Source: a virus (Duplodnaviria > Heunggongvirae > Uroviricota > Caudoviricetes). Taken from it: a stretch of 36,635 nt of DNA. A model generated the notes under the pieces. It was not told the origin of the DNA, ran no database searches, and saw only the letters and a program-made list of their open reading frames with translations. The stretch lies in IMG/VR virus record IMGVR_UViG_2744054854_000005, one strand, 5' to 3'. This document shows, one piece after another, positions 1-35,254 of the stretch. Each line of letters starts with the position of its first letter. The stretch's first letter is position 1. Both the position numbers and the translations under genes were made by a program.

Positions 1-1053
1 TTACGGGGTAATGCCAACCGCTGCCGCCACTTTGTCGCCACTTGGCAGCGTTGCCAGAGGATTGAAACGGAGCGCCGTTTCCAGATGATCCGGTGCCAGA
101 TGAGCGTAACGCATAGTCATTTTTATATCGTGATGCCCGAGGATTTTTTGCAAAGCAAGGATATTTCCACCCGACATCATGAAATGCGCCGCAAACGTAT
201 GGCGCAGAACGTGTGTCAGTTGACCGCGAGGGAGGACGATAGACGTTTTTTCCATCACGGATAAAAATTGAAAATAGCAGTCTGTGAAGAAATTGAACCC
301 ATCAAGCGCCATGATCTCTTCGTAAAGCTCTTTACTGATAGGGATGCTTCTGTTTTTCTTCCCCTTCGTTCTTACAAAGGTGATTCGGTATTTGGTCACC
401 TGTGAACGAGTAAGATTTACGGCTTCTCGCCAGCGTGCGCCTGTGCTTAAGCATATCTTAACTACCAGTGCCAGAATTGGGTCCTGACGTTTGCAATCAG
501 CCAGTAATTCAACAATCTGCTCATGGGTAAGCCATGCCATCTCTTTTTCTGCGATGGTGAATTTTCGCATGTTCTCCAGTGGGTTCGGATACGACCATTC
601 GCCCAGGCGGGATAGTTCGCTAAAAACACTACTTAGATAGCTTTGCTCCAGGTTAATGGTGACCGGGCTTGCTCCTTTCTTCCATTTCTCGCTGAAGTAG
701 ATCTCACCTGTCAGGCGTTTATCTCGATAGTGGGCAAACATTTTAGAGGTTAGATCAGTTGCAAGGGGATTGCCCAGAGCGTCAACCATCAGCAGCAATT
801 TGTCATAGACATGCTGCCCAGCTGTCAGTGATTTACCATGTAGTTTGAACCATAGCTCAACCACGTCTTTCAGTGTTCGACGATCCACTGATTCACCTAG
901 CCAGGGCTTTGCTTCGGTTTCTTCCATCGTGTGACGCTCAAAAGCCAGTGCTTCGCCTTTGGTGGCGAATTGTTTACGCACACGACGTCCACTACGTCCG
1001 GCGGGGTAACATTCGCAAAGCCATTTTCCTGTGGTGAGTTTTCGTACTGCCAT
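1..1053 (-). CDS. int: tyrosine integrase (P2/186-type)
   Basis: 350-aa ORF with C-terminal catalytic motifs of tyrosine recombinases (ARWREA...HVLRHTFAAHFMMSGG...ILGHHDIKMTMRYAHL). Sits at the prophage end, same strand as cI. Confidence 0.9.
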   Translation of the reverse strand: MAVRKLTTGKWLCECYPAGRSGRRVRKQFATKGEALAFERHTMEETEAKPWLGESVDRRTLKDVVELWFKLHGKSLTAGQHVYDKLLLMVDALGNPLATDLTSKMFAHYRDKRLTGEIYFSEKWKKGASPVTINLEQSYLSSVFSELSRLGEWSYPNPLENMRKFTIAEKEMAWLTHEQIVELLADCKRQDPILALVVKICLSTGARWREAVNLTRSQVTKYRITFVRTKGKKNRSIPISKELYEEIMALDGFNFFTDCYFQFLSVMEKTSIVLPRGQLTHVLRHTFAAHFMMSGGNILALQKILGHHDIKMTMRYAHLAPDHLETALRFNPLATLPSGDKVAAAVGITP

Positions 1054-1058
1054 AAAAA

Positions 1059-1078
1059 AGCCCTCATATCAGAGGGCT
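1059..1078 (-). terminator. hairpin (7-bp stem AGCCCTC/GAGGGCT, 6-nt loop) followed on the minus strand by TTTTT and directly by the int start codon
   Basis: Seen in sequence. The 3' arm contains GAGGG, which would serve as the int ribosome-binding site, so the hairpin may attenuate or occlude int translation. Confidence 0.4.
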
Positions 1079-1136
1079 AAATTTAACTGTATATACAACC
1101 AGTAATCAATGTGTGATTGCTATGAAACATACATTG

Positions 1137-2813
1137 CTAAGCAACATGTAGTTCATCGTTGGCGGAAGTGGCTGCTTTGCGTTCCTGATCAATAGATAGT
1201 GACTCTCTATATTCTTTCGCCTCTGCAAACATTGTCCAGTGGGCATTGATGTTCATATCTTCAATAACCGATTTAATTTCTTTAATATTTACGTTAAAAA
1301 ACTCTTTTCGTGAGTTAATTTTATTGACCTGCTTTTCGTTGAAGACTTTATGCAGATGATTTTCTAATGACGGTGCATCATCACTATAAATCATCGCATG
1401 AACATCGAACGAAAAAGGAACACTAGCATCCCCAAGTTCACGAACACGATCAAGTGGTTCAAGGCGGCGTGTCATTCCAATTTTATATACATCTTCGCCA
1501 AATGAGCCAATATTGCTAATTATATAAACATGGCCTGATCTAGTTTGTTGAGCCATAGAAATAGCTCGTTGGTTTTTAGCTTCAGCTTCTTCATATTTTA
1601 ACTGTAGTTCAGCTATTTTTTGCTCCAAAGCTAAGCGTTGTTCTTCATTTGCAAGCATAAGCTCTTTCGTTGCTTTATTTATAGCTTGCTGAATAGCTTT
1701 CTCTTCTTTTTCGGCTTCTTTTATCGCTTTTTCATACTCTCTACGAGCTCTTTCCTCTTCACGAAGCTGTTCTTTAATCCTTCTTTGCTCCTCTTTTTCT
1801 TCGAGCATAATTTCATTAACTGCAACTCCCCATTTTAGCTCGTTGAGTCGTGCCTGAAGATAGATGTCACTTATTTTTGCGGATCTAAAAGCAGAGCCAT
1901 TATAATTTACAAGTTGAAATGCATCTTTTATTTCTTGGGAAAGTTTTCCAAAATTGTTGTGTTTGACTTTTGATAAAATACTGTCAACTCTTCCATTGAA
2001 GGCATCCAAAACAAAGTTGATAGCAGTATTACGCCTGTTTTGCTCAACATAATCACACGAAGCTGCTTTATTAGTTTTTATTAATGATTTTGTTAACTCC
2101 CTGGCTTTTTGTAATTCCTTGCCTGCATCTGTAAACTCATAATTTTCTGCCAATTCATCAAGTACACTACGGTTAGGGATGATCCATTCATCGCCATAAC
2201 CTTCAATTTTATTTTTCATTGATTTGGCAACTGCTTCATATTTTTCTGCAAACTCTTTAGCTTCATATGCTGAACCAGCAATCTCTTTTGCTCTTTCTTC
2301 TGCATCGGAAATAATTTTTACTGCGTTGTCATTAGCATTTGAGATCAGCTCATTTGCTTTACTGTTGGCATTATCAAGACGTTCTTTGGCTTTCAGGCGT
2401 GCATCGCGAGCGTCTTTGGTGATTGCTATAGCTTCGCTATTAGCGTTGCTTATTGTTATCTGAGCTTGATAACTTGCTTCGTTTACTGTCTTAGCTGCCT
2501 TTATTTGGGCTTCTTCTATTTTTTGCCTAGCTATTGAGTCTGCATTTTTTATCTTATTCTCTGCCTCCATCACTGCGCTGTGCAATTCTTCGTATTGCCA
2601 TAATGGTGCTGCTCGCCCTTCAAGCTCTGATAGATCTCGTGCAGTCTGTGCTAACTTTTCTTGATTTTCACTCAGTTGGCTGGAAAGGGCTATGTTGTTA
2701 GCCGTCAGGTTATCTATGGCGGCTTTGTGTTCTTTACTTTGCTTAAATAATATTATAGCTAGAACAGGGGCGAGAAATGCTAATAAGAATATAACGATGG
2801 AAAATGAATTCAT
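1137..2813 (-). CDS. membrane-anchored coiled-coil protein with C-terminal T5orf172 (GIY-YIG-like) domain; DUF4041-like architecture; candidate defense/abortive-infection cargo
   Basis: 558 aa. N-terminal hydrophobic helix (FSIVIFLLAFLAPVLAIILF), long Ala/Lys/Glu-rich coiled coil, C-terminal motif GHVYIISNIGSFGEDVYKIGMTRRLEPLDRVRELGDASVPFSFDVHAMIYS...LENHLHKVF...RKEFFNV typical of T5orf172. AAGGA ribosome-binding site 8 nt upstream; strongly AT-rich relative to phage core; inserted 20 bp after the cI stop. Confidence 0.8.
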   Translation of the reverse strand: MNSFSIVIFLLAFLAPVLAIILFKQSKEHKAAIDNLTANNIALSSQLSENQEKLAQTARDLSELEGRAAPLWQYEELHSAVMEAENKIKNADSIARQKIEEAQIKAAKTVNEASYQAQITISNANSEAIAITKDARDARLKAKERLDNANSKANELISNANDNAVKIISDAEERAKEIAGSAYEAKEFAEKYEAVAKSMKNKIEGYGDEWIIPNRSVLDELAENYEFTDAGKELQKARELTKSLIKTNKAASCDYVEQNRRNTAINFVLDAFNGRVDSILSKVKHNNFGKLSQEIKDAFQLVNYNGSAFRSAKISDIYLQARLNELKWGVAVNEIMLEEKEEQRRIKEQLREEERARREYEKAIKEAEKEEKAIQQAINKATKELMLANEEQRLALEQKIAELQLKYEEAEAKNQRAISMAQQTRSGHVYIISNIGSFGEDVYKIGMTRRLEPLDRVRELGDASVPFSFDVHAMIYSDDAPSLENHLHKVFNEKQVNKINSRKEFFNVNIKEIKSVIEDMNINAHWTMFAEAKEYRESLSIDQERKAATSANDELHVA

Positions 2814-2833
2814 TTTTAAATCCTTTTACTATA

Positions 2834-3430
2834 TCAATTTGAAACTATTGTACTTCTTATACAAGCAACCACTTCAATATCAGAAAATGCACATTCAAAG
2901 CTATTCTCTGTAGTTGTAATTTTAATCATACCTTTTGGAAGCTTTGTGATTTTTCGAATGGAATAGGTTCCGTCGATGTTGATTAACCAGTGTCCATCAA
3001 GTACTTCAGAAAATTTTTGATCACAAATGTATGTGACAAGCCCATCCTGAATAACAATTGGTGATGAAAGATTTGCAGGAAGAAATGATGAATCGAATAT
3101 ATATGAACCATCTTCAATCATTTTGCCTGCGGTAAGGCGAAACTTGGGAAGCTCTTCTGTGGCTACTGTCAGCGAGCTTTGCTTAAGTCCTTGCCCGGTG
3201 GTTAACCATTTCAGTGAGGTTCCTGTTTCAAGAGCACATTGGATTATCCAGTCTGCAGGAAACGTATCCCGCAAATACCTGTTCGCCAGAGTGCTTTTTG
3301 ATACTTCCAAGTGATCAGCTAAAGCCTGTCGTGTCGTAAAGCCATAAGCTTCGACTAATCGCTCAATCGCAGCCTTACCACCTTTATTGGGATTTATTTT
3401 GATCTCACTTGGGTACTTTGATGTTGACAT
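2834..3430 (-). CDS. cI: 186-type CI immunity repressor
   Basis: 198 aa with N-terminal HTH (GFTTRQALADHLEVSKSTLANRY) and a C-terminal oligomerisation-type domain. Divergent from apl/cII, upstream of int on the same strand. Confidence 0.8.
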   Translation of the reverse strand: MSTSKYPSEIKINPNKGGKAAIERLVEAYGFTTRQALADHLEVSKSTLANRYLRDTFPADWIIQCALETGTSLKWLTTGQGLKQSSLTVATEELPKFRLTAGKMIEDGSYIFDSSFLPANLSSPIVIQDGLVTYICDQKFSEVLDGHWLINIDGTYSIRKITKLPKGMIKITTTENSFECAFSDIEVVACIRSTIVSN

Positions 3431-3525
3431 ATCTCTTTTGCGATCCTAGTATCAGTTTTGTCCCCATTTGGGTACTTGTCACGATTACTACAGGCTCACC
3501 ACAAGCCAATAGGAGATGTTGCATC

Positions 3526-3747
3526 ATGACCCCTAACATTTCAATAACTCTGAATACGCCACATGTCACAATTGAGCGTTATAGCGAACTTACTGGTCTT
3601 TCAATCGACACAATTAACGATATGCTGGCTGACGGTCGCATCCCTCGGCATCGCCTTCGGAAAGACAAGAAAAGAGAAAAGGTGATGATCAACCTTGCTG
3701 CTCTTACCGTTGATGCACTTACTGATTGCAATGTTGTATTCAACTAG
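3526..3747 (+). CDS. apl: Apl/Cox-like excisionase and switch regulator
   Basis: 73-aa basic HTH protein, first gene of the rightward early operon. AGGAGA ribosome-binding site upstream of the ATG at 3526; the longer ORF-track start at 3409 lacks one. Confidence 0.7.
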
Positions 3748-4296: not shown

Positions 4297-4530
4297 ATGC
4301 TGACGAAAGAACCATCATTTGCATCGCTGCTGGTAAAACAAAGCCCGGCAATGCACTACGGTCACGGCTGGATTTATTTACCTTGTGGGAAAAAGTGGCA
4401 TCCAAGTTTTGAATTACAACCCCGGCAACAGGCTTACCGGGGAAGAAATAAAAAGCGATTCCTACAAAGATTTATGGTTAACGTGGCAAACAACCTGCGA
4501 ACCAAGCGAAAAGTTTCTCTTGGAAGCTGA
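4297..4530 (+). CDS. hypothetical small early protein (at the position of 186 fil)
   Basis: 77-aa ORF with GAGGTG ribosome-binding site directly after cII. Overlaps the end of a minus-strand ORF, so the call is uncertain. Confidence 0.4.
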   Translation: MLTKEPSFASLLVKQSPAMHYGHGWIYLPCGKKWHPSFELQPRQQAYRGRNKKRFLQRFMVNVANNLRTKRKVSLGS

Positions 4531-4936
4531 GGTTTACATCGTCAACCCGACCGCAGGCAATAGCCGCTCGTTTGTAAGCTGGATTTAACAAAGAACCGAA
4601 TGTTGTGGAGTCAGAGTGATGCAAAGTTTTCAATTTTTGTGCAATGAACTGTGGAGACAATTCATCCTCGGCGTAAAGCAACTCACCATATTGTCGGCTT
4701 TGTACGCTTGCTCGTTCCTCGATAATAGCTGGTTGCCATACAAGTTGGATTGTTGCGATTACAACAACAGGAAAAGCGAACAACCATTCCAGACCTGTAT
4801 TAGCAAATACAGCGGTTCCGCTTATAAGTTGGATTGCTGTCATTAATTTATCAGCTCGACCATGGAACGTTGCTGTCATTAGTTCAAGGTAATAACAGTA
4901 GTGCAATTGGAAGTATTCGGAGCTTTGTTTAGTCAT
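4478..4936 (-). CDS. hypothetical protein with a central hydrophobic segment (antisense to the early operon)
   Basis: 152-codon open frame in an AT-rich stretch, AGGA 7 nt upstream, hydrophobic segment WLFAFPVVVIATIQLVW. Conflicts with plus-strand ORFs 4385..4588 and 4616..4846; which strand is coding cannot be decided by eye. Confidence 0.35.
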   Translation of the reverse strand: MTKQSSEYFQLHYCYYLELMTATFHGRADKLMTAIQLISGTAVFANTGLEWLFAFPVVVIATIQLVWQPAIIEERASVQSRQYGELLYAEDELSPQFIAQKLKTLHHSDSTTFGSLLNPAYKRAAIACGRVDDVNLSFQEKLFAWFAGCLPR

Positions 4937-9280: not shown

Positions 9281-9469
9281 ATGCAGGACTATTTTTTGGA
9301 GTCTTTGAAGCTCCAGCGCATTGATTTTTTTCTTAAGCTTGTAGCGGCTAGTGAGTGTAGTGATGAAGAGAAGGGGCTGGCCCTGCAGTGGGTTTCTGAA
9401 CTAACAGATGAACTCATGGCAAAAATCAGAACCCACGAATACAACCGCTCAATGGATGTCATCAGCTGA
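9281..9469 (+). CDS. SOS-regulated small protein (possible Tum-like antirepressor component)
   Basis: 62-aa ORF with GGAGG ribosome-binding site immediately downstream of the LexA box; position matches the 186 SOS (tum) operon. Function inferred from context only. Confidence 0.4.
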   Translation: MQDYFLESLKLQRIDFFLKLVAASECSDEEKGLALQWVSELTDELMAKIRTHEYNRSMDVIS

Positions 9470-9479
9470 GGTGACTTTT

Positions 9480-9713
9480 ATGCGCATTGAAATAATGATC
9501 GATAAAGAGCAGAAGATTAGCCAGTCTACCCTGGACGCTCTGGAGTCCGAGCTTTACCGCAACCTGCGCCCCCTGTATCCCAAAACGGTAATTCGTATCC
9601 GCAAAGGTAGCTCTAACGGTGTGGAACTTACCGGACTGCAACTGGACGAAGAAAGAAAACAAGTGATGAAAATTATGCAGAAAGTGTGGGAAGACGACAG
9701 CTGGCTGCATTAA
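9480..9713 (+). CDS. DinI-family protein
   Basis: 77 aa, MRIEIMIDKEQ...ELTGLQLDEERKQVMKIMQKVWEDDSW resembles the DinI/MsgA family. GAGGTG ribosome-binding site; coupled to the upstream ORF. Confidence 0.7.
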   Translation: MRIEIMIDKEQKISQSTLDALESELYRNLRPLYPKTVIRIRKGSSNGVELTGLQLDEERKQVMKIMQKVWEDDSWLH

Positions 9714-9936: not shown

Positions 9937-10014
9937 CGCGCGCTCATGGTTGTCAGTAAGAATTTATGGTATTTACAATATATAAATAATCACCATTTCA
10001 AGGAGATCTGTTGC

Positions 10015-10719
10015 ATGGCTATGTTAGTGGAAAATTGCCCAAGGTGCGGTGCGCAAAAAATAGCATTTGATGTTCGAGGGGCTAACTGCTGTGGTACGTA
10101 TGAAACATTTTCCGGCGAAAATTTACCCGAATATGAAGTATATTGTGTATGCAGGGAGTGTAAGAAAACCACAATATATATTTGCGATAGTTTAGAACGG
10201 GGGCGTGATCTTAGCAGTATTAACTGGGGCATGGCCTTATTTAAGTTAACTGATATTGCAAAAGTAAAACGTCCAATTAGTCCAGCAGATTTAGATGCAG
10301 GAGAACCACCAGAATTTTTGCCTCAGCATATACATGAAGCTTTTGTAGAAGGTTCTAAGTGTTTAGCTATTGGTTGCTATAACGCAGCAGGAACTATGTT
10401 TAGGTTATGTTTGGATTATGCAACAAAGGACTTATTACCCAAGGAAGATGCTGAACCAAATCAAAAAATACGGCGAAGCTTAGGGTTAAGAATGAATTGG
10501 TTGTTTGATAATCAGCGGTTGCCAGAGACTTTAAGAGACTTGGCTGAATGTGTAAAAGATGATGGCAATGACGGCGCGCATGAAGGAGTTTTAGATTACG
10601 CGGCTGCAGAGGATCTTGAAGAGTTCACTTATATATTGTTGGAACGTTTATATACTGAACCTCAACGCCTTGTTCAGGCAAAAGCAAGACGTGAGGATAG
10701 AAGAAAAAATAGAGGGTAG
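10015..10719 (+). CDS. zinc-ribbon plus DUF4145-like protein; candidate defense/abortive-infection cargo
   Basis: 234 aa from an internal ATG with AGGAG ribosome-binding site and TATAAA -10-like element upstream. N-terminal CPRCG...CVCREC zinc ribbon; C-terminal region with GNDGAHEG, reminiscent of the conserved R..GN..AH motif of DUF4145. AT-rich; convergent with Q, 8 bp between stops. Confidence 0.65.
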   Translation: MAMLVENCPRCGAQKIAFDVRGANCCGTYETFSGENLPEYEVYCVCRECKKTTIYICDSLERGRDLSSINWGMALFKLTDIAKVKRPISPADLDAGEPPEFLPQHIHEAFVEGSKCLAIGCYNAAGTMFRLCLDYATKDLLPKEDAEPNQKIRRSLGLRMNWLFDNQRLPETLRDLAECVKDDGNDGAHEGVLDYAAAEDLEEFTYILLERLYTEPQRLVQAKARREDRRKNRG

Positions 10720-21389: not shown

Positions 21390-21987
21390 CCTGCTGCCGC
21401 CCGGTTCATCGCCGCTTGAGCGCCGACTGGCGCAGACCTGCAGCGGCATTTCCGATCTGCAGGTGCCGCTGCGCGACTTGTGGAACCCGGCAACGTGTCC
21501 GGTCAGCTTTCTGCCGTATCTGGCGTGGGCGTTTTCCGTCGACCGCTGGGACGAAAGCTGGACGGAGAGCGTCAAGCGCCGGATGGTGCAGGACGCTTTC
21601 TATATCCATCAGCACAAGGGGACAACCAGCGCTGTGCGGCGCGTGGTGGAGCCGTTCGGCTTCCTGATCCGCATCATTGAGTGGTGGCAGACCGGCGAAA
21701 CGCCGGGGACGTTTCGCCTTGATATTGGCGTGCAGGAACAAGGCATCACGGAAGAAACCTATCTGGAACTTGAGCGGCTGATCGGTGATGCCAAACCGTG
21801 CAGCCGTCACCTGATCGGCATGTCCATCAACCTGCAGACCAGTGGGCCGTATTTTATGGGGGCTGCCACTTACACCGGCGAAGAAATCACGATCTACCCG
21901 TATATCAACGAAACCATTATTTCCGGCGGCACCGCTTATGAGGGCGGGGCAGTCCATGTTATTGACACAATGAGAGTAAATCCATGA
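21382..21987 (+). CDS. I: baseplate/tail protein I
   Basis: 201 aa, P2 gpI-like. Confidence 0.8.
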   Translation: MNSLLPPGSSPLERRLAQTCSGISDLQVPLRDLWNPATCPVSFLPYLAWAFSVDRWDESWTESVKRRMVQDAFYIHQHKGTTSAVRRVVEPFGFLIRIIEWWQTGETPGTFRLDIGVQEQGITEETYLELERLIGDAKPCSRHLIGMSINLQTSGPYFMGAATYTGEEITIYPYINETIISGGTAYEGGAVHVIDTMRVNP

Positions 21988-22975
21988 GCGCAAAATTTTA
22001 CACCCTGCTGACGGAAATCGGGGCGGCGAAACTGGCAAGCGCCGCCGCGCTCGGCATTCCGTTGAAAATTACCCAGATGGCGGTGGGCGACGGTGGTGGC
22101 GTATTACCAACGCCAAGCGCGCAACAGACCGCGTTAGTTGCTGAAAAACACCGCGCCGCGCTGAATATGCTGTATATCGATCCGCAGAACAGCAGCCAGA
22201 TTATTGCTGAGCAGGTGATCCCCGAAACGGAGGGAGGTTGGTGGATTCGTGAGGTAGGTCTGTTTGATGAGACTGGAGCACTGATTGCTGTGGGCAACTG
22301 CCCGGAGAGCTACAAACCGCAGCTGGCGGAGGGGAGCGGGCGCACGCAGACCGTGCGCATGGTGTTGATTACCAGCAGCACAGATAACATCACCCTGAAA
22401 ATTGATCCGGCAGTGGTGCTGGCGACCCGTAAATATGTTGATGACAAGGTGCTGGAACTAAAGGTGTATGTGGATGACCTGATGGCTAGACACCTTGCAG
22501 CTGCAGATCCTCATACGCAGTATGCACCAAAAGCCAGTCCGACATTCACTGGTACGCCAAAAGCACCAACGGCAGCGGCAGGCAATAATTCCACGCAACT
22601 TGCTAATACGGCTTTTGTGCAGGCGGCAATTGCTGCACTGGTGGCATCTTCCCCTGCAGCTCTGGATACACTGAATGAGCTGGCAGCAGCGCTGGGGAAC
22701 GATCCAAATTTTGCCGCCACCATGACAAATGCGCTTGCCGGAAAGATGGATAAGGCAGCCAATGGGACGGACATTGCCGACGTATCAGAATTTCTCAAAA
22801 ACCTTGGAATTAAATCGGCAGCACTGTGTGATGTGGGTGCGGGTACAAACCAAATCCCCGACATGGGTTCGTTTGGAATATTGAAAAACGCGATCGGATA
22901 TCAGTATCTACCAGGTGGACTGATTTTGCAGTGGGGTAAAGTTGGCCCAACCAACGCAGGGCAAACTACAAACGT
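21984..22975 (+). CDS. H: tail fiber protein H, N-terminal conserved part; 3' end lost in assembly gap
   Basis: N-terminus MSAKFYTLLTEIGAAKLA... typical of P2-family tail fibers; ORF runs into the N run. Confidence 0.8.
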
Positions 22976-23075
22976 NNNNNNNNNNNNNNNNNNNNNNNNN
23001 NNNNNNNNNNNNNNNNNNNNNNNNNNNNNNNNNNNNNNNNNNNNNNNNNNNNNNNNNNNNNNNNNNNNNNNNNNN
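22976..23075. other. assembly gap (100 N) in the variable tail-fiber region
   Basis: Run of n characters; 100 is a conventional placeholder length, so the missing sequence may be much longer. Confidence 0.95.
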
Positions 23076-23399
23076 TTGATTGAAATTACCCATGTGCTTC
23101 ACCTCCAATTTTGTGGTGCAGCTCCCTCCGGTAAAAAGCTGGGGTCAGTGAATGGGATGCCTGGTTGGGTTGATGTGCCGCCACTGACTGCAGTTGAGTT
23201 GCTGGCAGCGGTAGTAATTAAAAAACAATCGCTCATCAGTGAGGCGAACGTGGTAATCGCACCGCTAAAAGATGCGTCAGATGGTGGATATATCGATGCT
23301 GCAGACGCACCACGACTTGATGCATGGCAGCGATACCGTTATGCGTTAACGAAGGTGGACGCTGCTAACCCGGTGTGGCCGGATAAGCCAGCACAATAA
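23076..23399 (+). CDS. G: tail fiber assembly protein, C-terminal part; 5' end in gap
   Basis: C-terminus ...PRLDAWQRYRYALTKVDAANPVWPDKPAQ is the hallmark ending of Tfa/gpG-type chaperones; the ORF track fuses it to H only because the Ns are read as codons. Confidence 0.6.
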   Translation: MIEITHVLHLQFCGAAPSGKKLGSVNGMPGWVDVPPLTAVELLAAVVIKKQSLISEANVVIAPLKDASDGGYIDAADAPRLDAWQRYRYALTKVDAANPVWPDKPAQ

Positions 23400-23726
23400 T
23401 AACTATTTATATTTTATGGAAAATGGCAGGCTATCTTGGATACCCTGAAATATGAATCATAAATACTGACAAAATATGTTTATATGTTACCTGAAAAGTC
23501 GTTGCAATGCTCCACACAGCCAGTCGCGCAAGGAAGTGGCTGGATATAGCGGGTCAAGATCAGAGTTTGAATCGAGTCGTGATGGGGGGCGAGGTACACT
23601 AATGGCTTAGGGAAAGGGTAGCATTGACTTGGTTTTCATGTCAATGCTAAAATTATACTTTATTATTTATGAATGCTCTTGGTGTAATTATTAAGAGCAA
23701 ATCTAATGGCGGCAAGGATTTATTTG

Positions 23727-24833
23727 ATGAGTTTGCTAAGTAGGTTTTGGGGGGAATGGTTTAAAAGTTATGGTGATACTGATTTTATAACGGGCATTCG
23801 TGCTTTTGCTATTCTTTCAGTTATTCTTATTCATTCCGGTGGCGCTGGTCTTCGTTATTTTGGATGGTATGGTAATAATTTAGCAAACTTGGGTGCAATG
23901 GGGCCGTGTATTTTTTTTGTTATATCCGGTTATAGTGTTTCTGTGTCATATGAGAAATCATCTTGTTATTTGTCCTTTCTAAAAAATAGAATATTAAGAA
24001 TTGCCCCATTATATTATTTTTGGATTGTTGTCTTCATTTTGTTATTTCAGGGGGTTGGGTATTGGGGGGAGAGATATGGCGCATCCTTAAATTTTTATAA
24101 TTTATTAATGCACATCTCATTCTTAAGTTTTGCTGATTATAGAGTGGCGAATTCAATATTAGGCGTTGAATGGTCTTTATCCATTGAAGTTTTCTGGTAT
24201 ATTTTTTTACCGGCAATCATTCTCGTAATGAGAAGTAAAACGTCAGTATGCATAATGTTAATTACGTCCTGGTTATTATTTACGATATCCTTGATTATAT
24301 TGAAGTCTTACTCCTCCCCTAACAACGGTGATGTAATGATCGCATATTATTGGACTCCATTTCCGTATTTTTTCTCGTTTTGTGCTGGTGTGGCAGCATA
24401 TAGGGTGCGGTCTTGGTGGAGATTTTCAGGGTTAAGTGCAGATATTGCATTGTTATTGTCTATAACACTCATTCTTTTATATCCCATTATGGAAAGATAT
24501 AGTGTTAACAAAATAATCGATAAGCCCGTTCTATTCTCCATGCTCACTATGGTGAACATTTCCGTTGGGAATAAAGATGGTCATATATTACGATCTTTAT
24601 TATGTAATAAAGTATCTATATTTATTGGTTCGATAAGTTATAGTCTGTATTTATCTCATTATGTAGTTATTTTTTTGGTTGGGCCGTACCTAACTGAATT
24701 TAAAGAAAACTCTATATGGCATTTTATAATATTCCTACTAATATCTATAATTGGAAGTGTTTTTACTTATATCTTAATAGAAAGGGTGTTAACTGATAAA
24801 ATAAAGCATTTTATTGACTCGAGAATGAAATAG
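23727..24833 (+). CDS. acyltransferase family 3 integral membrane protein (OafA/Oac-like, possible O-antigen acetylase)
   Basis: Motif ITGIRAFAILSVILIHSGG near the N-terminus and about 10 hydrophobic helices; very AT-rich. ATG at 23727 has an AAGGA ribosome-binding site; the ORF-track ATG at 23706 does not. Confidence 0.75.
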   Translation: MSLLSRFWGEWFKSYGDTDFITGIRAFAILSVILIHSGGAGLRYFGWYGNNLANLGAMGPCIFFVISGYSVSVSYEKSSCYLSFLKNRILRIAPLYYFWIVVFILLFQGVGYWGERYGASLNFYNLLMHISFLSFADYRVANSILGVEWSLSIEVFWYIFLPAIILVMRSKTSVCIMLITSWLLFTISLIILKSYSSPNNGDVMIAYYWTPFPYFFSFCAGVAAYRVRSWWRFSGLSADIALLLSITLILLYPIMERYSVNKIIDKPVLFSMLTMVNISVGNKDGHILRSLLCNKVSIFIGSISYSLYLSHYVVIFLVGPYLTEFKENSIWHFIIFLLISIIGSVFTYILIERVLTDKIKHFIDSRMK

Positions 24834-24915
24834 GCAGCATTAATTAAATCACAATAATTGATCTGGAAGCTCTATAGTGCCGGGTGCAACATAATGCACT
24901 TTGTTGCTGCAAACA

Positions 24916-24950
24916 ATTAGCGCAAGATGACGATGTTGCCTTGCGCTAAT
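24916..24950 (+). terminator. hairpin with 11-bp perfect arms (ATTAGCGCAAG / CTTGCGCTAAT) and 13-nt loop downstream of the acyltransferase
   Basis: Seen in sequence; followed by AT-rich sequence rather than a clean T-run, so terminator function is uncertain. Confidence 0.35.
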
Positions 24951-25039
24951 ATATTAAATTCACACCAGCGTCAAACTTGCGCCCCTTCATCACCGCCTCA
25001 TCAGTGATTATCATCCTCGCTTCAAAATCAACCTTTGAA

Positions 25040-25065
25040 AATGGTCACCTATATAGGTGACCATT
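25040..25065 (-). terminator. 26-bp perfect palindrome AATGGTCACCTATATAGGTGACCATT, 5 bp after the stop of the minus-strand 140-aa gene, followed on that strand by TTTT
   Basis: Seen in sequence. Position and U-run fit an intrinsic terminator; perfect symmetry would also fit a dimeric protein-binding site. Confidence 0.45.
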
Positions 25066-25069
25066 CGGG

Positions 25070-25492
25070 TTAATGCAGCGTTGTAGTTGAGCTGGACTCT
25101 GCCATTGCCACTGTCAATTCATCGCCTTCGGCTGAGATCTTAATGGTATTACTTCCTTCTGATTTAGCGCCTTTTGGTAGACCTAGCTGATCATAGATAC
25201 ACAAGAATCTTGAATCATTTATAAAGGTGATTTCTGTTACAGTCCCACCTTCAACGACCTTAGAGTCTATTGATTTTATCAAATTGATATCCTGAACATT
25301 AATGTGCTTTATCGCATCCCAGTTAAGGCTGATGTCCACGTTATCCTTTTGCATCGTTATCACATGACCGGCCTTATGCTGGGTTGTGACTTTTCCATCA
25401 GGGCTCATCGTAATCTTTTGCCCCATGTGATAAATAATTTGAGTTCCGTCTTCGAGACACTCGATTTTTGGCTCTTTAGTAAAGTCGTTCAT
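25070..25492 (-). CDS. hypothetical protein, no recognisable domain
   Basis: 140 aa, AAGGA ribosome-binding site, AT-rich, divergent from the invertase gene. Confidence 0.55.
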   Translation of the reverse strand: MNDFTKEPKIECLEDGTQIIYHMGQKITMSPDGKVTTQHKAGHVITMQKDNVDISLNWDAIKHINVQDINLIKSIDSKVVEGGTVTEITFINDSRFLCIYDQLGLPKGAKSEGSNTIKISAEGDELTVAMAESSSTTTLH

Positions 25493-25697
25493 GAAAATCC
25501 TTCAATTATCTGTTGCTGGAAGGTGCTAATCTACACGAATCCTTGGTTATGTATGTAATGAGGCTCTAGAAATCCACTTGAATATAAATAAATTTTTATG
25601 GTGTTGGCTTGTAATGCTCGCGTAGCTCTTTGTCAAAAGTGAAACTCTGATAACCTGGTTCTACTGACGAACAGAAGGATGAGCAGGAGATCGCTTT

Positions 25698-26258
25698 ATG
25701 ATTATTGGGTATGCACGAGTATCAAGTAATCATCAGGACACCGAGCTTCAGATGCAGGCGCTCAGAGCTGCTGGCTGTAAGTTAATTTTTGAGGAAAAGG
25801 CTTCTGGCCGTAAGACGAATCGACCAATCTTGAAGAAAGTGGTTGAGATGCTTGAACCCGGTGACGAACTGGTCATCTGGAAGTTAGATCGTATCGGTCG
25901 CAATGTACTGCACGCATTATTGACCTTTCAGAGCCTCGCAGAACGCAATGTTAATATTCGTTCTATTACAGATGGCGTTGACCTGAGCACTGCCAGTGGG
26001 CGCTATAACTTCCGTAATATTCTCTCTGCGGCACAATATGAGTCTGATCTGAATAGTGAACGCACTCTGGCAGGGTTAGCGGTTGCCCGCGCTAAGGGGA
26101 GGATTGGCGGACGTAAGCCTAAGTATACTGATGAGCACTGGGATGCGTTTGAACGGGAAATTAAGTCCGGCTGCTCACATCGTGATATAGCTCTCAAATA
26201 TGGGGTCGGCCTGTCGACTCTCTACAAACGTTATCCGGCTCAGCAAGAGCATCACTAA
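25698..26258 (+). CDS. serine recombinase, DNA invertase (Hin/Gin/Cin/Pin family)
   Basis: 186 aa; N-terminal catalytic region MIIGYARVSSNHQ with the catalytic serine, and C-terminal HTH (GCSHRDIALKYGVGLSTLYKRY). AGGAGA ribosome-binding site. Confidence 0.85.
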   Translation: MIIGYARVSSNHQDTELQMQALRAAGCKLIFEEKASGRKTNRPILKKVVEMLEPGDELVIWKLDRIGRNVLHALLTFQSLAERNVNIRSITDGVDLSTASGRYNFRNILSAAQYESDLNSERTLAGLAVARAKGRIGGRKPKYTDEHWDAFEREIKSGCSHRDIALKYGVGLSTLYKRYPAQQEHH

Positions 26259-26343
26259 ACACTCTTTGCGTTCATTTTTGCACTGTGCAGAATGTGTCTT
26301 TTTGGCACCTTCTGGCAGTGCAAAATTTATCGCGTTTTGGTGC

Positions 26344-33568: not shown

Positions 33569-35254
33569 TTATCCTAATCCTGGCCATACCATGACGATGA
33601 TTGTCCCTGCCAGCGTCAGCAGGACGTTGGCGATTGCATAGGTGCCCGCATAGCCCAGCGCCGGGATGTTACTGCGAGCTGTATCACTGATGATCTCCAT
33701 TGCCGGCGCGCAGGTACGTGCGCCCATCATTGCGCCGAACAACAGCGCGCGGTTCATTCGCAATACATAAGCACCGAACAAGAAACAGATAACCACGGGC
33801 ACCAGACTGACAATCAATCCGGCAATCAACATCTGACCGCCAATCGCGCCCAGGCCGTTATTAATACCGCTACCGGCGCTCAGACCAACGCCTGCCATAA
33901 ACACCATCAAGCCGAACTCTTTCACCATGCTTAATGCACCCTGCGGAATGTAACCGAAGGTCGGGTGGTTAGCACGCATAAAGCCCAGCATAATTCCGGC
34001 GAATAACAACCCGGCAGCGTTCCCCATGCCGAAACTGAATGTGCTGAACTGGAAGGTGATCATCCCGATCATCAGCCCAATAACAAAGAAGGCGCAAAAT
34101 GCCAGCAGGTCAGTGACCTGGCTGTGAATCGAGATAAAGCCGATGCGATCGGCGATGGTTTTTACGCGACGGGCATCACCGCTGACTTGTAAAACGTCAC
34201 CTTTGTTAAGCACGACGTTGTCATCTATCGGCATCTCAATCTGGCTACGAATGACGCGGTTAAGGAAGCAACCGTGATCGGTCAACTTCAGTTGTGCGAG
34301 ACGTTTACCTACAGCGTTATGGTTTTTAACGACCACTTCTTCAGTGACGATACGCATGTCGAGAAGGTCACGATCGAAAACTTCTTTACCGTTACGGAAG
34401 CTGGGATCGAGTCGGGCATGGGCGTCGGGATAGCCTACCAACGCTATTTCATCGCCCATTTGTAGCACGGCATCACCGTCTGGATTTGCCAGAATCCCGT
34501 TACGTCGAATACGTTCAATGTAGCAGCCGGTTTGTCGATAAATACCCAGTTCACGCAGATTTTTGCCGTCGGTCCAGGCCACCAGCTCCGGGCCGACGCG
34601 ATAGGCGCGGATCACCGGTAAATAAACCTTACGGTTGGCATCAGTGTCCAGGCCACGTTCGCGGGCGATTTGCTGGGCGCTGGTCTGTAAGTCCTGATGC
34701 TGCAATTTCGGCAAGTAACGCGCACCAACAATCAAACTCACCAGACCGATTAAATAGGTTAAGGCATACCCGAGGCTCAGATTATCCAGTGCCAGTGAGA
34801 GCTGCCTGCTTTCCATGCCGGAATGACGCAGTGTATCGCCAGCACCGACCAGAACCGGTGTCGACGTCATAGAGCCTGCTAACATACCGGCCGTCAGGCC
34901 AATATCCCAGCCAAACAGCTTACCTAACCCTAAGGCGATCACCAGCGCACTGCCAACCATCACCAGTGCTAACATTAGGTAATTTTTCCCATCGCGAAAA
35001 AAAATGGAAAAAAAGTTCGGTCCGGCTTCAACCCCAACACAGAAAATAAACAGCATAAAGCCAAGATTAAGCGCATCGGTGTTAATGCTGAAATGTTGTT
35101 GGCCTAATAACAGCGATACGACTAAAACGCCAATGGAATTACCCAGTTGGATCGAACCAAGTCGTAACTTTCCGAGACATAGCCCAAGCGCGAGGACCAC
35201 AAATAATAACAGAATGTAATTCCCATTTAACAATTCGGCGACGTTTATATTCAC
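33569..35254 (-). CDS. ybjL: putative transport protein YbjL (AspT/YidE/YbjL family)
   Basis: 561 aa, size and sequence character of E. coli YbjL; multi-pass membrane protein with central soluble domains. Confidence 0.9.

Follow-up and report, generated by a model that had tools for sequence, protein, structure and literature searches.

The anti-phage system PD-λ-1 (Vassallo et al. 2022, PMC9519451) is identical to SNIPE (Saxton et al., Nature 2026, PMC13190303), a single-gene system that acts by direct defence. SNIPE resides at the membrane with a topology derived from PhoA-LacZα fusions, and in its presence 32P-labelled phage DNA is cleaved during injection. The exchange E414A abolishes both defence and DNA cleavage; a variant without the transmembrane helix (ΔTM) is toxic and cuts the host chromosome, and host DNA that is tethered to the membrane escapes cleavage. 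The DUF4041 domain of SNIPE binds DNA as well as the phage tape measure protein, for which crosslinking was seen. Infected cells protected by SNIPE do not lyse and grow to confluence, and SNIPE cultures outlive high phage doses, unlike those of the abortive-infection (Abi) control PD-λ-3 (all PMC13190303).

In this study, we closely examined a gene on the minus strand of a viral genome record (IMGVR_UViG_2744054854_000005), whose entire stretch of 36,635 nucleotides is referred to here as the window. The open reading frame at positions 1137 to 2813 starts with ATG, encodes 558 amino acids and matches SNIPE/PD-λ-1, a single-gene defence system, in profile and BLASTP searches. It is flanked on the same strand by the gene for a 186-type CI repressor (2834 to 3430; Pfam Phage_CI_repr and Phage_CI_C), which is the first gene of the lysogenic operon, and by int (1 to 1053; Pfam Int_N and Phage_integrase). 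An earlier note, made from the sequence alone, had placed the gene between cI and int, 20 bp after the cI stop codon, and this position is correct. The 20-nt spacer (2814 to 2833, minus strand) contains an AAGGA Shine-Dalgarno sequence 8 nt upstream of the ATG, and a terminator scan revealed no terminator-like site at the junction of cI and the 558-aa gene. Spacer and Shine-Dalgarno sequence are kept across the E. coli, Klebsiella, and Citrobacter loci. The 83-nt spacer on the other side (1054 to 1136, minus strand) is a leader of int and not part of the cargo: it contains a terminator-like site, consisting of a hairpin (1078 to 1059) and a T-run that abuts the int ATG, is conserved in orthologous loci, and is also kept in phage 4LV2017, whose cargo differs. 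An Rfam search of positions 900 to 3700 yielded sub-threshold matches only, e.g., a RyhB-like one on the terminator-like hairpin (28.6 bits versus a cut-off of 55), and no tRNAs were found in the window.

According to the record annotation of phage 186, cI and int form one lysogenic operon transcribed from pL/pE. Since the 558-aa gene occupies the junction at which cI meets int in phage 186, and since the 20-nt spacer lacks a terminator, the lysogenic promoter most probably drives cI and this gene as one transcript. The use of pL in particular is assumed from phage 186, and a consensus scan for a pL-like promoter found none. The placement thus appears suited to expression from the lysogenic operon, as the earlier note had suggested. 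Co-transcription with cI would entail constitutive production in lysogens and, as we propose, their protection from unrelated phages.

The GC content of the gene is 0.376 (37.6%; GC3 0.284), compared to 0.508 (50.8%) in the window, 0.483 in int, and 0.518 in the remaining sequence, in line with the observation that it is more AT-rich than the phage backbone. The AT-rich tract extends beyond the gene into the 3' half of cI (GC 0.333), and the region from 23.3 to 25.7 kb (GC 0.35) is more AT-rich than the gene, which is therefore not the AT maximum of the window. Among 144 phage records encoding a 186-type CI, the gene is found in only 2, and in phage 186, RE-2010, and Cartapus, cI lies directly next to int. 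On this comparative evidence, the gene is cargo and not backbone, as had been claimed; it is neither present in essentially all 186-like phages nor of normal composition. Furthermore, it is linked almost 1:1 to one cI allele, and about 3% of the complete E. coli genomes contain it: the allele was found in 163 E. coli genomes and the gene in 164 to 165, and among the matches listed, both are adjacent in every row with comparable coordinates. Layout and spacing of cI and the SNIPE gene are the same in Klebsiella and Citrobacter. PADLOC matched none of the alternative cargo genes (349 aa in 4LV2017, 401 aa in RE-2010 and Cartapus, orf69 in phage 186), and Pfam gave only a marginal PD40 match in orf69; recognizable defence genes were not found in this slot of these phages.

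Among 5,027 PADLOC models, the only full-length match of the 558-aa protein was PD-Lambda-1 (PDLC03976: E=9.1e-120, 398.8 bits, residues 107 to 550 versus positions 37 to 481 of the 491 in the profile; PDLC03977: E=1.3e-115). The SNIPE prototype, used as a control, scored 1.9e-198. In addition, PDC-S57 matched no more than the nuclease domain, and marginal matches to LmuB and JetC fell on helical sequence. PHROG 1847 was matched with E=5.9e-132, and BLASTP against the prototype gave 49% identity over 293 aa (residues 265 to 555; E=3e-76). The Pfam domains DUF4041, T5orf172, and MUG113 follow each other in the same order as in the prototype with an offset of +70 residues. The prototype itself was pinned to L005:3984-5486, which encodes 500 aa with the published residue at 9/9 mutated positions and matching Pfam coordinates. 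The RefSeq label of the identical E. coli gene reads "SNIPE associated domain-containing protein", and PF13250 is called "SNIPE" in newer Pfam data. The gene stands alone, with cI and int as direct neighbours at all loci examined; its distant homologues sit in unrelated gene neighbourhoods, which argues against an obligatory partner gene. We therefore assign the 558-aa gene to the SNIPE (PD-λ-1) family, as a single-protein direct anti-phage defence, with a probability of roughly 85%. A reader with access to the sequence only had correctly singled out a real defence gene, a single-gene candidate that combines a membrane anchor with a GIY-YIG-type nuclease, and had wondered whether this architecture already has a name. 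It does, PD-λ-1 or SNIPE; as a homologue of a known SNIPE, the AT-rich gene is real but already known, and since it is named by PADLOC and current NCBI RefSeq annotation, it represents no new kind of system.

The protein begins with a short N terminus (MNS) and a single predicted transmembrane helix (residues 1 to 24; positions 2742 to 2813, minus strand, as are all segments below). Kyte-Doolittle windows of 19 residues exceed 1.6 solely when starting at residues 1 to 9, with a peak of 2.99 (FSIVIFLLAFLAPVLAIIL), and by hydropathy the helix at about residues 3 to 23 is the sole hydrophobic segment, so the N-terminal transmembrane helix of the earlier note was recovered. Members of the SNIPE family carry an N-terminal membrane-targeting element, which in 59% of homologues is one transmembrane helix among the first 70 residues. 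The hydrophobic helix followed by K-K-S-K is kept in 118/118 orthologues, and an N-terminal hydrophobic helix is present in 27 of 32 relatives with the full architecture. Directly after the helix lies the positively charged flank KQSKEHK (residues 24 to 30), with MNS before it, and the protein is predicted to adopt an N-out/C-in topology, consistent with the positive-inside rule.

The helix is followed by an N-terminal "adapter" (residues 25 to 264; 2022 to 2741), which in the AF2 model consists of a long helical part up to residue ~203 and a conserved pre-DUF4041 segment (204 to 264). The DUF4041 domain itself (PF13250; residues 265 to 330; 1824 to 2021) matched Pfam at residues 267 to 322 (E=3.1e-12, 46.6 bits versus a cut-off of 27). 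It is connected by a linker helix (residues 331 to 425; 1539 to 1823; AF2 and composition), in which 45% of the residues are charged, to a GIY-YIG-type nuclease domain (T5orf172/MUG113; residues 426 to 525; 1239 to 1538). The T5orf172 (residues 427 to 520, E=5.9e-17) and MUG113 (443 to 520, E=1.6e-19) matches also exceed the Pfam cut-offs, confirming the C-terminal T5orf172/GIY-YIG-like motif. The single coiled coil of about 400 residues that had been described was not recovered: the AF2 model contains two long helical stretches, at residues ~2 to 203 (helices 2 to 67 and 71 to 203, pLDDT ~60 to 86) and 317 to 425 (helices 317 to 387 and 390 to 425, pLDDT 62 to 80), separated by DUF4041 and the conserved segment before it (~204 to 330). 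A simple heptad score had no discriminating power and was dropped. Conservation among orthologues is lowest for residues 1 to 110 (61 to 67%, versus 91 to 94% downstream).

An alternative reading is a structural or segregation protein of the coiled-coil type that serves prophage or host cell biology and not defence. The labels "chromosome segregation ATPase" and "vacuolar-type H+-ATPase subunit H" in KP12, vB_EcoM-813R9, Marinitoga viruses, and JGI entries point in this direction, as do weak sub-threshold matches to DivIVA/Wag31, SMC, and V-ATPase subunit E. However, these matches lie far under the curated cut-offs (24.5 versus 260 bits; 15.5 versus 729) and cover helical, low-complexity sequence only, whereas the specific domain matches are DUF4041 and T5orf172, and we consider a segregation function extremely improbable. 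The ATPase annotation was rejected, as the Walker A and B motifs are absent from the 558-aa protein, and the label "chromosome segregation ATPase" carried by the gene in phage records is wrong.

Within the nuclease domain, the motif residues VYI (429 to 431), YKIG (443 to 446), R449/R450, E484, and N497 are all invariant or nearly so, and Y430, K444, G446, R449, R450, E484, and N497 are among the invariant columns of an 18-sequence alignment of diverse homologues. By analogy with GIY-YIG enzymes, these presumably represent the GIY-type Tyr, the YIG-type motif, the catalytic Arg, the metal-binding Glu, and the conserved Asn. In BLASTP, E484 aligned with the catalytic E414 of SNIPE. The order of elements in the AF2 model (E429-434, E442-449, H453-460, E468-476, H480-493) fits the β-β-α-β-α core of the GIY-YIG α/β fold at a pLDDT of only ~39 to 58; the globular domains of both AF2 models have a pLDDT below 50, and all rows of the underlying alignment are >80% identical to the query. 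When the full-length AF2 model was compared with the PDB by Foldseek, it matched coiled coils only, without significance and in no case at E<=0.001, and neither phmmer with residues 266 to 558 nor hmmsearch with a profile from 18 diverse nuclease domains gave anything meaningful in the PDB. Based on the conserved residues and the prototype, we infer that the 558-aa protein has nuclease activity.

T5orf172/GIY-YIG domains are also found in phage homing endonucleases. A selfish, free-standing GIY-YIG homing endonuclease, or its decayed remnant, residing between cI and int without benefit for the lysogen would fit both the domain and the AT-rich insertion between two genes that are closely spaced in related phages. 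Yet the protein retains every part of the SNIPE architecture, including transmembrane anchor and DUF4041, at 82 to 99% identity over 558 aa in many genera and with no sign of decay. The gene is also stably linked to one cI allele and has not spread into the abutting cI-int junctions of relatives, and anchoring in the membrane fits poorly with homing. We therefore regard a homing endonuclease as highly unlikely and retain the assignment to SNIPE.

By homology with the characterized prototype, we propose the following mechanism for the 558-aa protein, whose gene is prophage cargo of a 186/P2-like myovirus, inserted between cI and int. The N-terminal helix would act as an inner-membrane anchor, with the N terminus in the periplasm and the remainder in the cytoplasm, and anchoring would hold the nuclease away from the chromosome. 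At injection, the N-terminal adapter and DUF4041 may engage the injection machinery, in the form of the tape measure protein, an inner-membrane channel, or both, together with the entering DNA. The C-terminal GIY-YIG nuclease would then cut the phage DNA on entry, so that infection fails and the cell survives.

The earlier note had instead likened the protein to abortive-infection proteins. On this reading, a membrane-anchored nuclease would be switched on by infection, degrade host and phage DNA, kill the infected cell, and thereby shield the population. An anchor combined with a nuclease fits this mode of action, and since ΔTM SNIPE is toxic and cuts the chromosome (PMC13190303), the nuclease can damage self DNA; the recognition domains of the 558-aa subclade are, moreover, divergent. 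However, SNIPE/PD-λ-1 is a direct defence in which infected cells survive (PMC13190303): with the prototype they reach confluence, high-dose cultures live, unlike those with PD-λ-3, and membrane-tethered host DNA stays uncut. The nuclease and linker regions, which bear the activity, are 48 to 69% identical to the prototype. An Abi effector is thus improbable, and direct defence remains our preferred reading.

Compared with the SNIPE prototype of E. coli ECOR26 (RCP76574.1), the 558-aa gene is likewise a single, prophage-borne gene, and its product shares the succession of transmembrane helix, helical N terminus, DUF4041, charged linker, and GIY-YIG/T5orf172 domain. The nuclease domain is 69% identical, with the catalytic Glu kept, and the linker 48%. 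In contrast, the proteins differ in length (558 versus 500 aa), the N-terminal 264 residues cannot be aligned by BLASTP, and DUF4041 is just 28% identical. SNIPE positions at which mutations altered binding of the tape measure protein differ as well, with W257 corresponding to K327 and E223 to S292. The genomic setting is also different: the 558-aa gene lies in the cI-int lysogenic operon of a P2/186-like myovirus, and the prototype-type gene belongs to a lambdoid prophage, where it is flanked by ren and by genes of the nin region and is encoded on the opposite strand. By sequence comparison, the 558-aa protein belongs to a divergent SNIPE subclade, documented here for E. coli, Klebsiella, and Citrobacter, where P2/186-like prophages carry it in the cI-int lysogenic operon. 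Because of the unalignable N-terminal 264 residues and the low identity of DUF4041, the target range of SNIPE and partners such as ManYZ are not transferable, and any target range of the 558-aa protein would be conjectural.

The closest homologues outside the enterobacterial clade are found in Synechococcus phages Ssp-JY37 and Yong-L1-251 and in Marinitoga viruses MCV2 and MPV1, with 53 to 55% identity over 73 to 87% of the protein; the pre-DUF4041 segment falls within the similar part. DUF4041 of the 558-aa protein is 70% identical to that of Ssp-JY37 and 56% to that of Marinitoga camini virus 2, and the N-terminal hydrophobic helix is present in the Ssp-JY37 and MCV2 homologues, both of which were aligned. 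They differ in their hosts (cyanobacteria and Thermotogae), in genomic position, and in the first ~100 residues, which are unrelated; these SNIPE-type genes are unannotated or labelled "chromosome segregation ATPase". An exhaustive phmmer search with the adapter (residues 1 to 264) against 1.84 billion representatives gave 321 matches, and 204 cluster representatives match at E<=1e-10. An adapter borrowed from another family was considered and rejected: the best 150 of the 321 matches continue into DUF4041 wherever they are long enough, and the rest are fragments. DUF4041 relatives with an alternative effector were likewise dismissed, since P0160 and P0224 are frameshifted with out-of-frame R/S/P-rich tails; the other five long DUF4041 matches without GIY-YIG have DUF4041 as their sole Pfam match and were treated as artefacts.

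Since the N-terminal adapter and the DUF4041 interface would be particular to the enterobacterial 558-aa subclade, the injection apparatus or host channel that it recognizes could differ from that of the prototype. We tentatively suggest, as a possibility that is rather doubtful at present, that it constitutes a functionally distinct SNIPE and, at the same time, a cI-linked, co-transcribed cassette. If true, it might cover phages that the prototype misses, and a cassette fixed with one 186-type cI allele would join repressor immunity with exclusion at DNA entry. The divergent recognition domains make the subclade a natural comparison partner for how adapter and DUF4041 set the phage specificity of SNIPE.

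Zorya, Kiwa, and prophage superinfection-exclusion proteins likewise act at the inner membrane and at the injection step (PMC13190303), but have no sequence relationship to the 558-aa protein. Defence cargo on P2-like prophages is known from their hotspots (Rousset et al. 2022, PMC9122126; preprint 10.64898/2026.02.27.708500), and the SNIPE gene is likewise such cargo. In contrast to these hotspots, its site is the lysogenic operon, outside the classical gpA-portal (tin/old) and Z/fun sites, and it is inherited together with one cI allele and not freely swapped.

The open reading frame flagged in the earlier note between cI and int is real (1137..2813, minus strand, 558 aa). It lies in a nearly complete 186/P2-like (Peduoviridae) prophage, whose gene order from int (1..1053, minus strand) runs through early, replication, head, tail and late-control genes, with a host permease gene at 33569..35254. 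A gap of 20 nt separates its start from the end of the 186-type CI repressor gene (2834..3430; Phage_CI_repr, E=8e-32; Phage_CI_C, E=1.5e-27), an AAGGA Shine-Dalgarno motif is positioned 8 nt 5' of its ATG, and its end is separated from the int start codon by 83 nt. GC content is 0.376 (GC3 0.284), compared to 0.483 in int and 0.508 in the window as a whole; AT content peaks elsewhere, at 23.3-25.7 kb. The low-GC tract extends beyond the gene into the C-terminal half of cI (2834-3130), which is AT-rich like the cargo (GC 0.333 versus 0.457 in the 5' half).

Profile searches assigned the encoded protein to the SNIPE/PD-λ-1 family. Both PADLOC PD-Lambda-1 profiles matched from profile position 37 to the end (E=9.1e-120 and 1.3e-115), as did PHROG 1847 (E=5.9e-132). 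PD-λ-1 was discovered by functional selection against λ as a 500-aa protein of E. coli ECOR26 (RCP76574.1; DUF4041 at 197-252, T5orf172 at 357-448) (Vassallo et al. 2022, PMC9519451) and was later characterised in depth, including its mechanism, and renamed SNIPE (Saxton et al., Nature 2026, PMC13190303). As prototype sequence we used the 500-aa gene L005:3984-5486 from a lambdoid prophage, which we take to be the prototype on the basis of its sequence: at 9/9 positions mutated in SNIPE its residue agrees with the published one (E223, N250, L253, W257, E264, K305, I308, T319 and E414), its Pfam coordinates equal those published, and its PADLOC profile score is 1.9e-198. Over residues 265-555 the window protein aligned to it with 49% identity (E=3e-76) and with E484 at the position of SNIPE E414, and residues 1-264 gave no alignment to the prototype. 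The earlier note had left open whether this architecture was a named defence system. It is already named, since an identical E. coli protein (WP_025649891.1) is called 'SNIPE associated domain-containing protein' in current RefSeq, PF13250 (DUF4041) bears the name 'SNIPE' in the precomputed Pfam labels of the contig index, and PADLOC recognises the gene. The gene very probably encodes an active anti-phage system; the finding is real, but already known and annotated as such by current pipelines.

The protein contains a single strongly hydrophobic segment (residues ~3-23) followed by KQSKEHK, and its Pfam domains, DUF4041 (267-322), T5orf172 (427-520) and MUG113 (443-520), all exceed the curated cut-offs. 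While the initial description of the protein was correct overall, its '400-residue coiled coil' corresponds to two long helical stretches with DUF4041 between them in the AF2 secondary structure. Residues Y430, R449/R450, E484 and N497, the predicted catalytic set, are invariant in an alignment of 18 diverse homologues. Both AF2 runs gave low confidence in the globular domains, and fold and PDB sequence searches returned no significant match. The predicted GIY-YIG fold is therefore assigned from membership in the Pfam families, from the motif and from the identity shared with the corresponding domain of the prototype.

The prototype resides in the inner membrane in N-out/C-in topology and, without its transmembrane helix, the nuclease is toxic and relocates to the nucleoid (PMC13190303). 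Its DUF4041 promotes DNA binding, SNIPE associates with ManYZ and the λ tape measure protein, and radiolabelled λ DNA is cut into fragments during injection in an E414-dependent manner, while an induced prophage is spared (PMC13190303). By homology, the window protein would act by the same mechanism, as the catalytic set is conserved, identity to the prototype reaches 69% in the nuclease domain and 48% in the linker helix, and a predicted transmembrane helix with a positive, putatively cytoplasmic flank is present. The proposal that the gene acts by abortive infection is therefore not supported: SNIPE is a direct defence, and cells carrying the prototype survive infection (PMC13190303).

In phage 186, cI and int overlap by one base and belong to the pL/pE lysogenic operon; the record annotation places the end of this operon at a terminator downstream of orf69. 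In RE-2010 and Cartapus, cI abuts int, and the gene after int is unrelated and encodes 401 aa. In phage 4LV2017, which has the window's integrase, the gap between cI and int is occupied by another gene, of 349 aa; these alternative cargo genes have no recognisable defence domains. As the junction is tight in 186, RE-2010 and Cartapus, the window gene is an insertion. The 20-nt spacer, the Shine-Dalgarno motif and the lack of a terminator between cI and the gene indicate that cI and the gene are most probably transcribed together in lysogens. The full-length gene is found in 164-165 of 5,426 complete E. coli genomes and the window's cI allele in 163, the two being adjacent in every listed row with comparable coordinates; Klebsiella and Citrobacter orthologues (82-85% identity) keep the layout cI-20 nt-gene-82 nt-int. 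Judged by this near 1:1 linkage, adjacency and common layout, the gene behaves as a conserved cI-linked module rather than freely shuffled cargo. Eight further genomes match this cI allele only in the part encoding the N-terminal HTH (~87% identity), which suggests a recombination breakpoint inside cI.

Downstream of the gene, a minus-strand hairpin (AGCCCTC-N6-GAGGGCT, then TTTTT; 1059-1078) runs directly into the int ATG at 1053. Its stem is unchanged in the loci of Klebsiella and Citrobacter, with differences confined to the loop, and an equivalent hairpin occurs in 4LV2017 despite the different upstream cargo. GAGGG in the 3' arm is the sole Shine-Dalgarno-like motif for int. Possible roles of the hairpin are termination or attenuation of the lysogenic transcript ahead of int, or occlusion of int translation. 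Rfam gave only a sub-threshold RyhB-like match (28.6 bits, cut-off 55). At the cI start, a strong plus-strand promoter-like site (TTGACA-17-TAGTAT, 3424-3452) is bracketed by a 22-nt direct repeat (3397-3418 and 3456-3477; 82% identical, 59-nt spacing); these elements are probably the pR equivalent and its CI operators.

Genes in the classical P2 gpA-portal hotspot include one that is DinI-like (9408-9713, E=1.3e-22) and one for a 257-aa DUF4145 protein (9946-10719), which matches PADLOC PD-T7-4 weakly (E=1.7e-5) and may be a second defence gene. The most AT-rich tract (GC ~0.35, within 23300-26260) directly follows the tail-fibre gene and encodes an Acyl_transf_3 membrane acyltransferase (23706-24833), possibly for O-antigen modification, an unknown 140-aa ORF (25070-25492, minus strand) and a resolvase/invertase (25698-26258). 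The tail-fibre ORF (21984-23399) fuses a Phage_tail_fib N terminus to a Caudo_TAP (tail-fibre assembly) C terminus and could represent an invertible or rearranged segment. A 152-aa ORF antisense to the rightward early operon (4478-4936, minus strand) had no Pfam or PADLOC match and may be a small cargo gene or spurious.

Of the 144 phage records that have a 186-type CI homologue, only KP12 and vB_EcoM-813R9 carry the window gene. Both label it 'chromosome segregation ATPase', which is wrong; as the protein lacks Walker A and Walker B motifs, the label is an artefact of the coiled-coil sequence. The same label is attached to SNIPE-family genes in OM835953.1 (KP12), ON470620.1, KP836356.2, OZ018341.1 and MW221967.1. 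A prototype-type copy in E. coli AF22 (NZ_OZ547223.1; L004:4188-5486) is annotated as 432 aa; it lacks the transmembrane helix and overlaps a 78-aa ORF that precedes it, and is for these reasons probably disrupted. Since SNIPE without the helix is toxic in published work, the AF22 protein may not be active, or the annotated start may be wrong. The nearest relatives beyond Enterobacteriaceae are encoded by two Synechococcus phages and two Marinitoga (Thermotogae) viruses (53-55% identity over 73-87% of the length; DUF4041 70% and 56%), which points to wide exchange among viruses and fits the deviant composition.

An exhaustive search with the adapter (residues 1-264) matched 204 cluster representatives (E<=1e-10). 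Among the 150 best matches, 104 run on into DUF4041 and the remaining 46 are mostly short (74 to ~370 aa) and fragment-like, so that borrowing of the adapter from another family was rejected; by this continuation it qualifies as a SNIPE-specific module. An N-terminal hydrophobic helix is present in 27/32 matches with complete architecture among these 150. Within the SNIPE family, conservation is reported to be lowest in the N-terminal region (PMC13190303), and the 118 orthologues of the window gene likewise vary most in residues 1-120. SNIPE affects none of the BASEL myoviruses and podoviruses, and DUF4041 mutations sharpen defence against the Bas14-18 clade via that clade's tape measure protein (PMC13190303). 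Because the recognition parts differ, the prototype's target range cannot be transferred to the window protein. The fixed association of this divergent subclade with one repressor allele may have functional meaning. Compared with the SNIPE prototype, the window protein has a DUF4041 of only 28% identity and a longer adapter of unrelated sequence.
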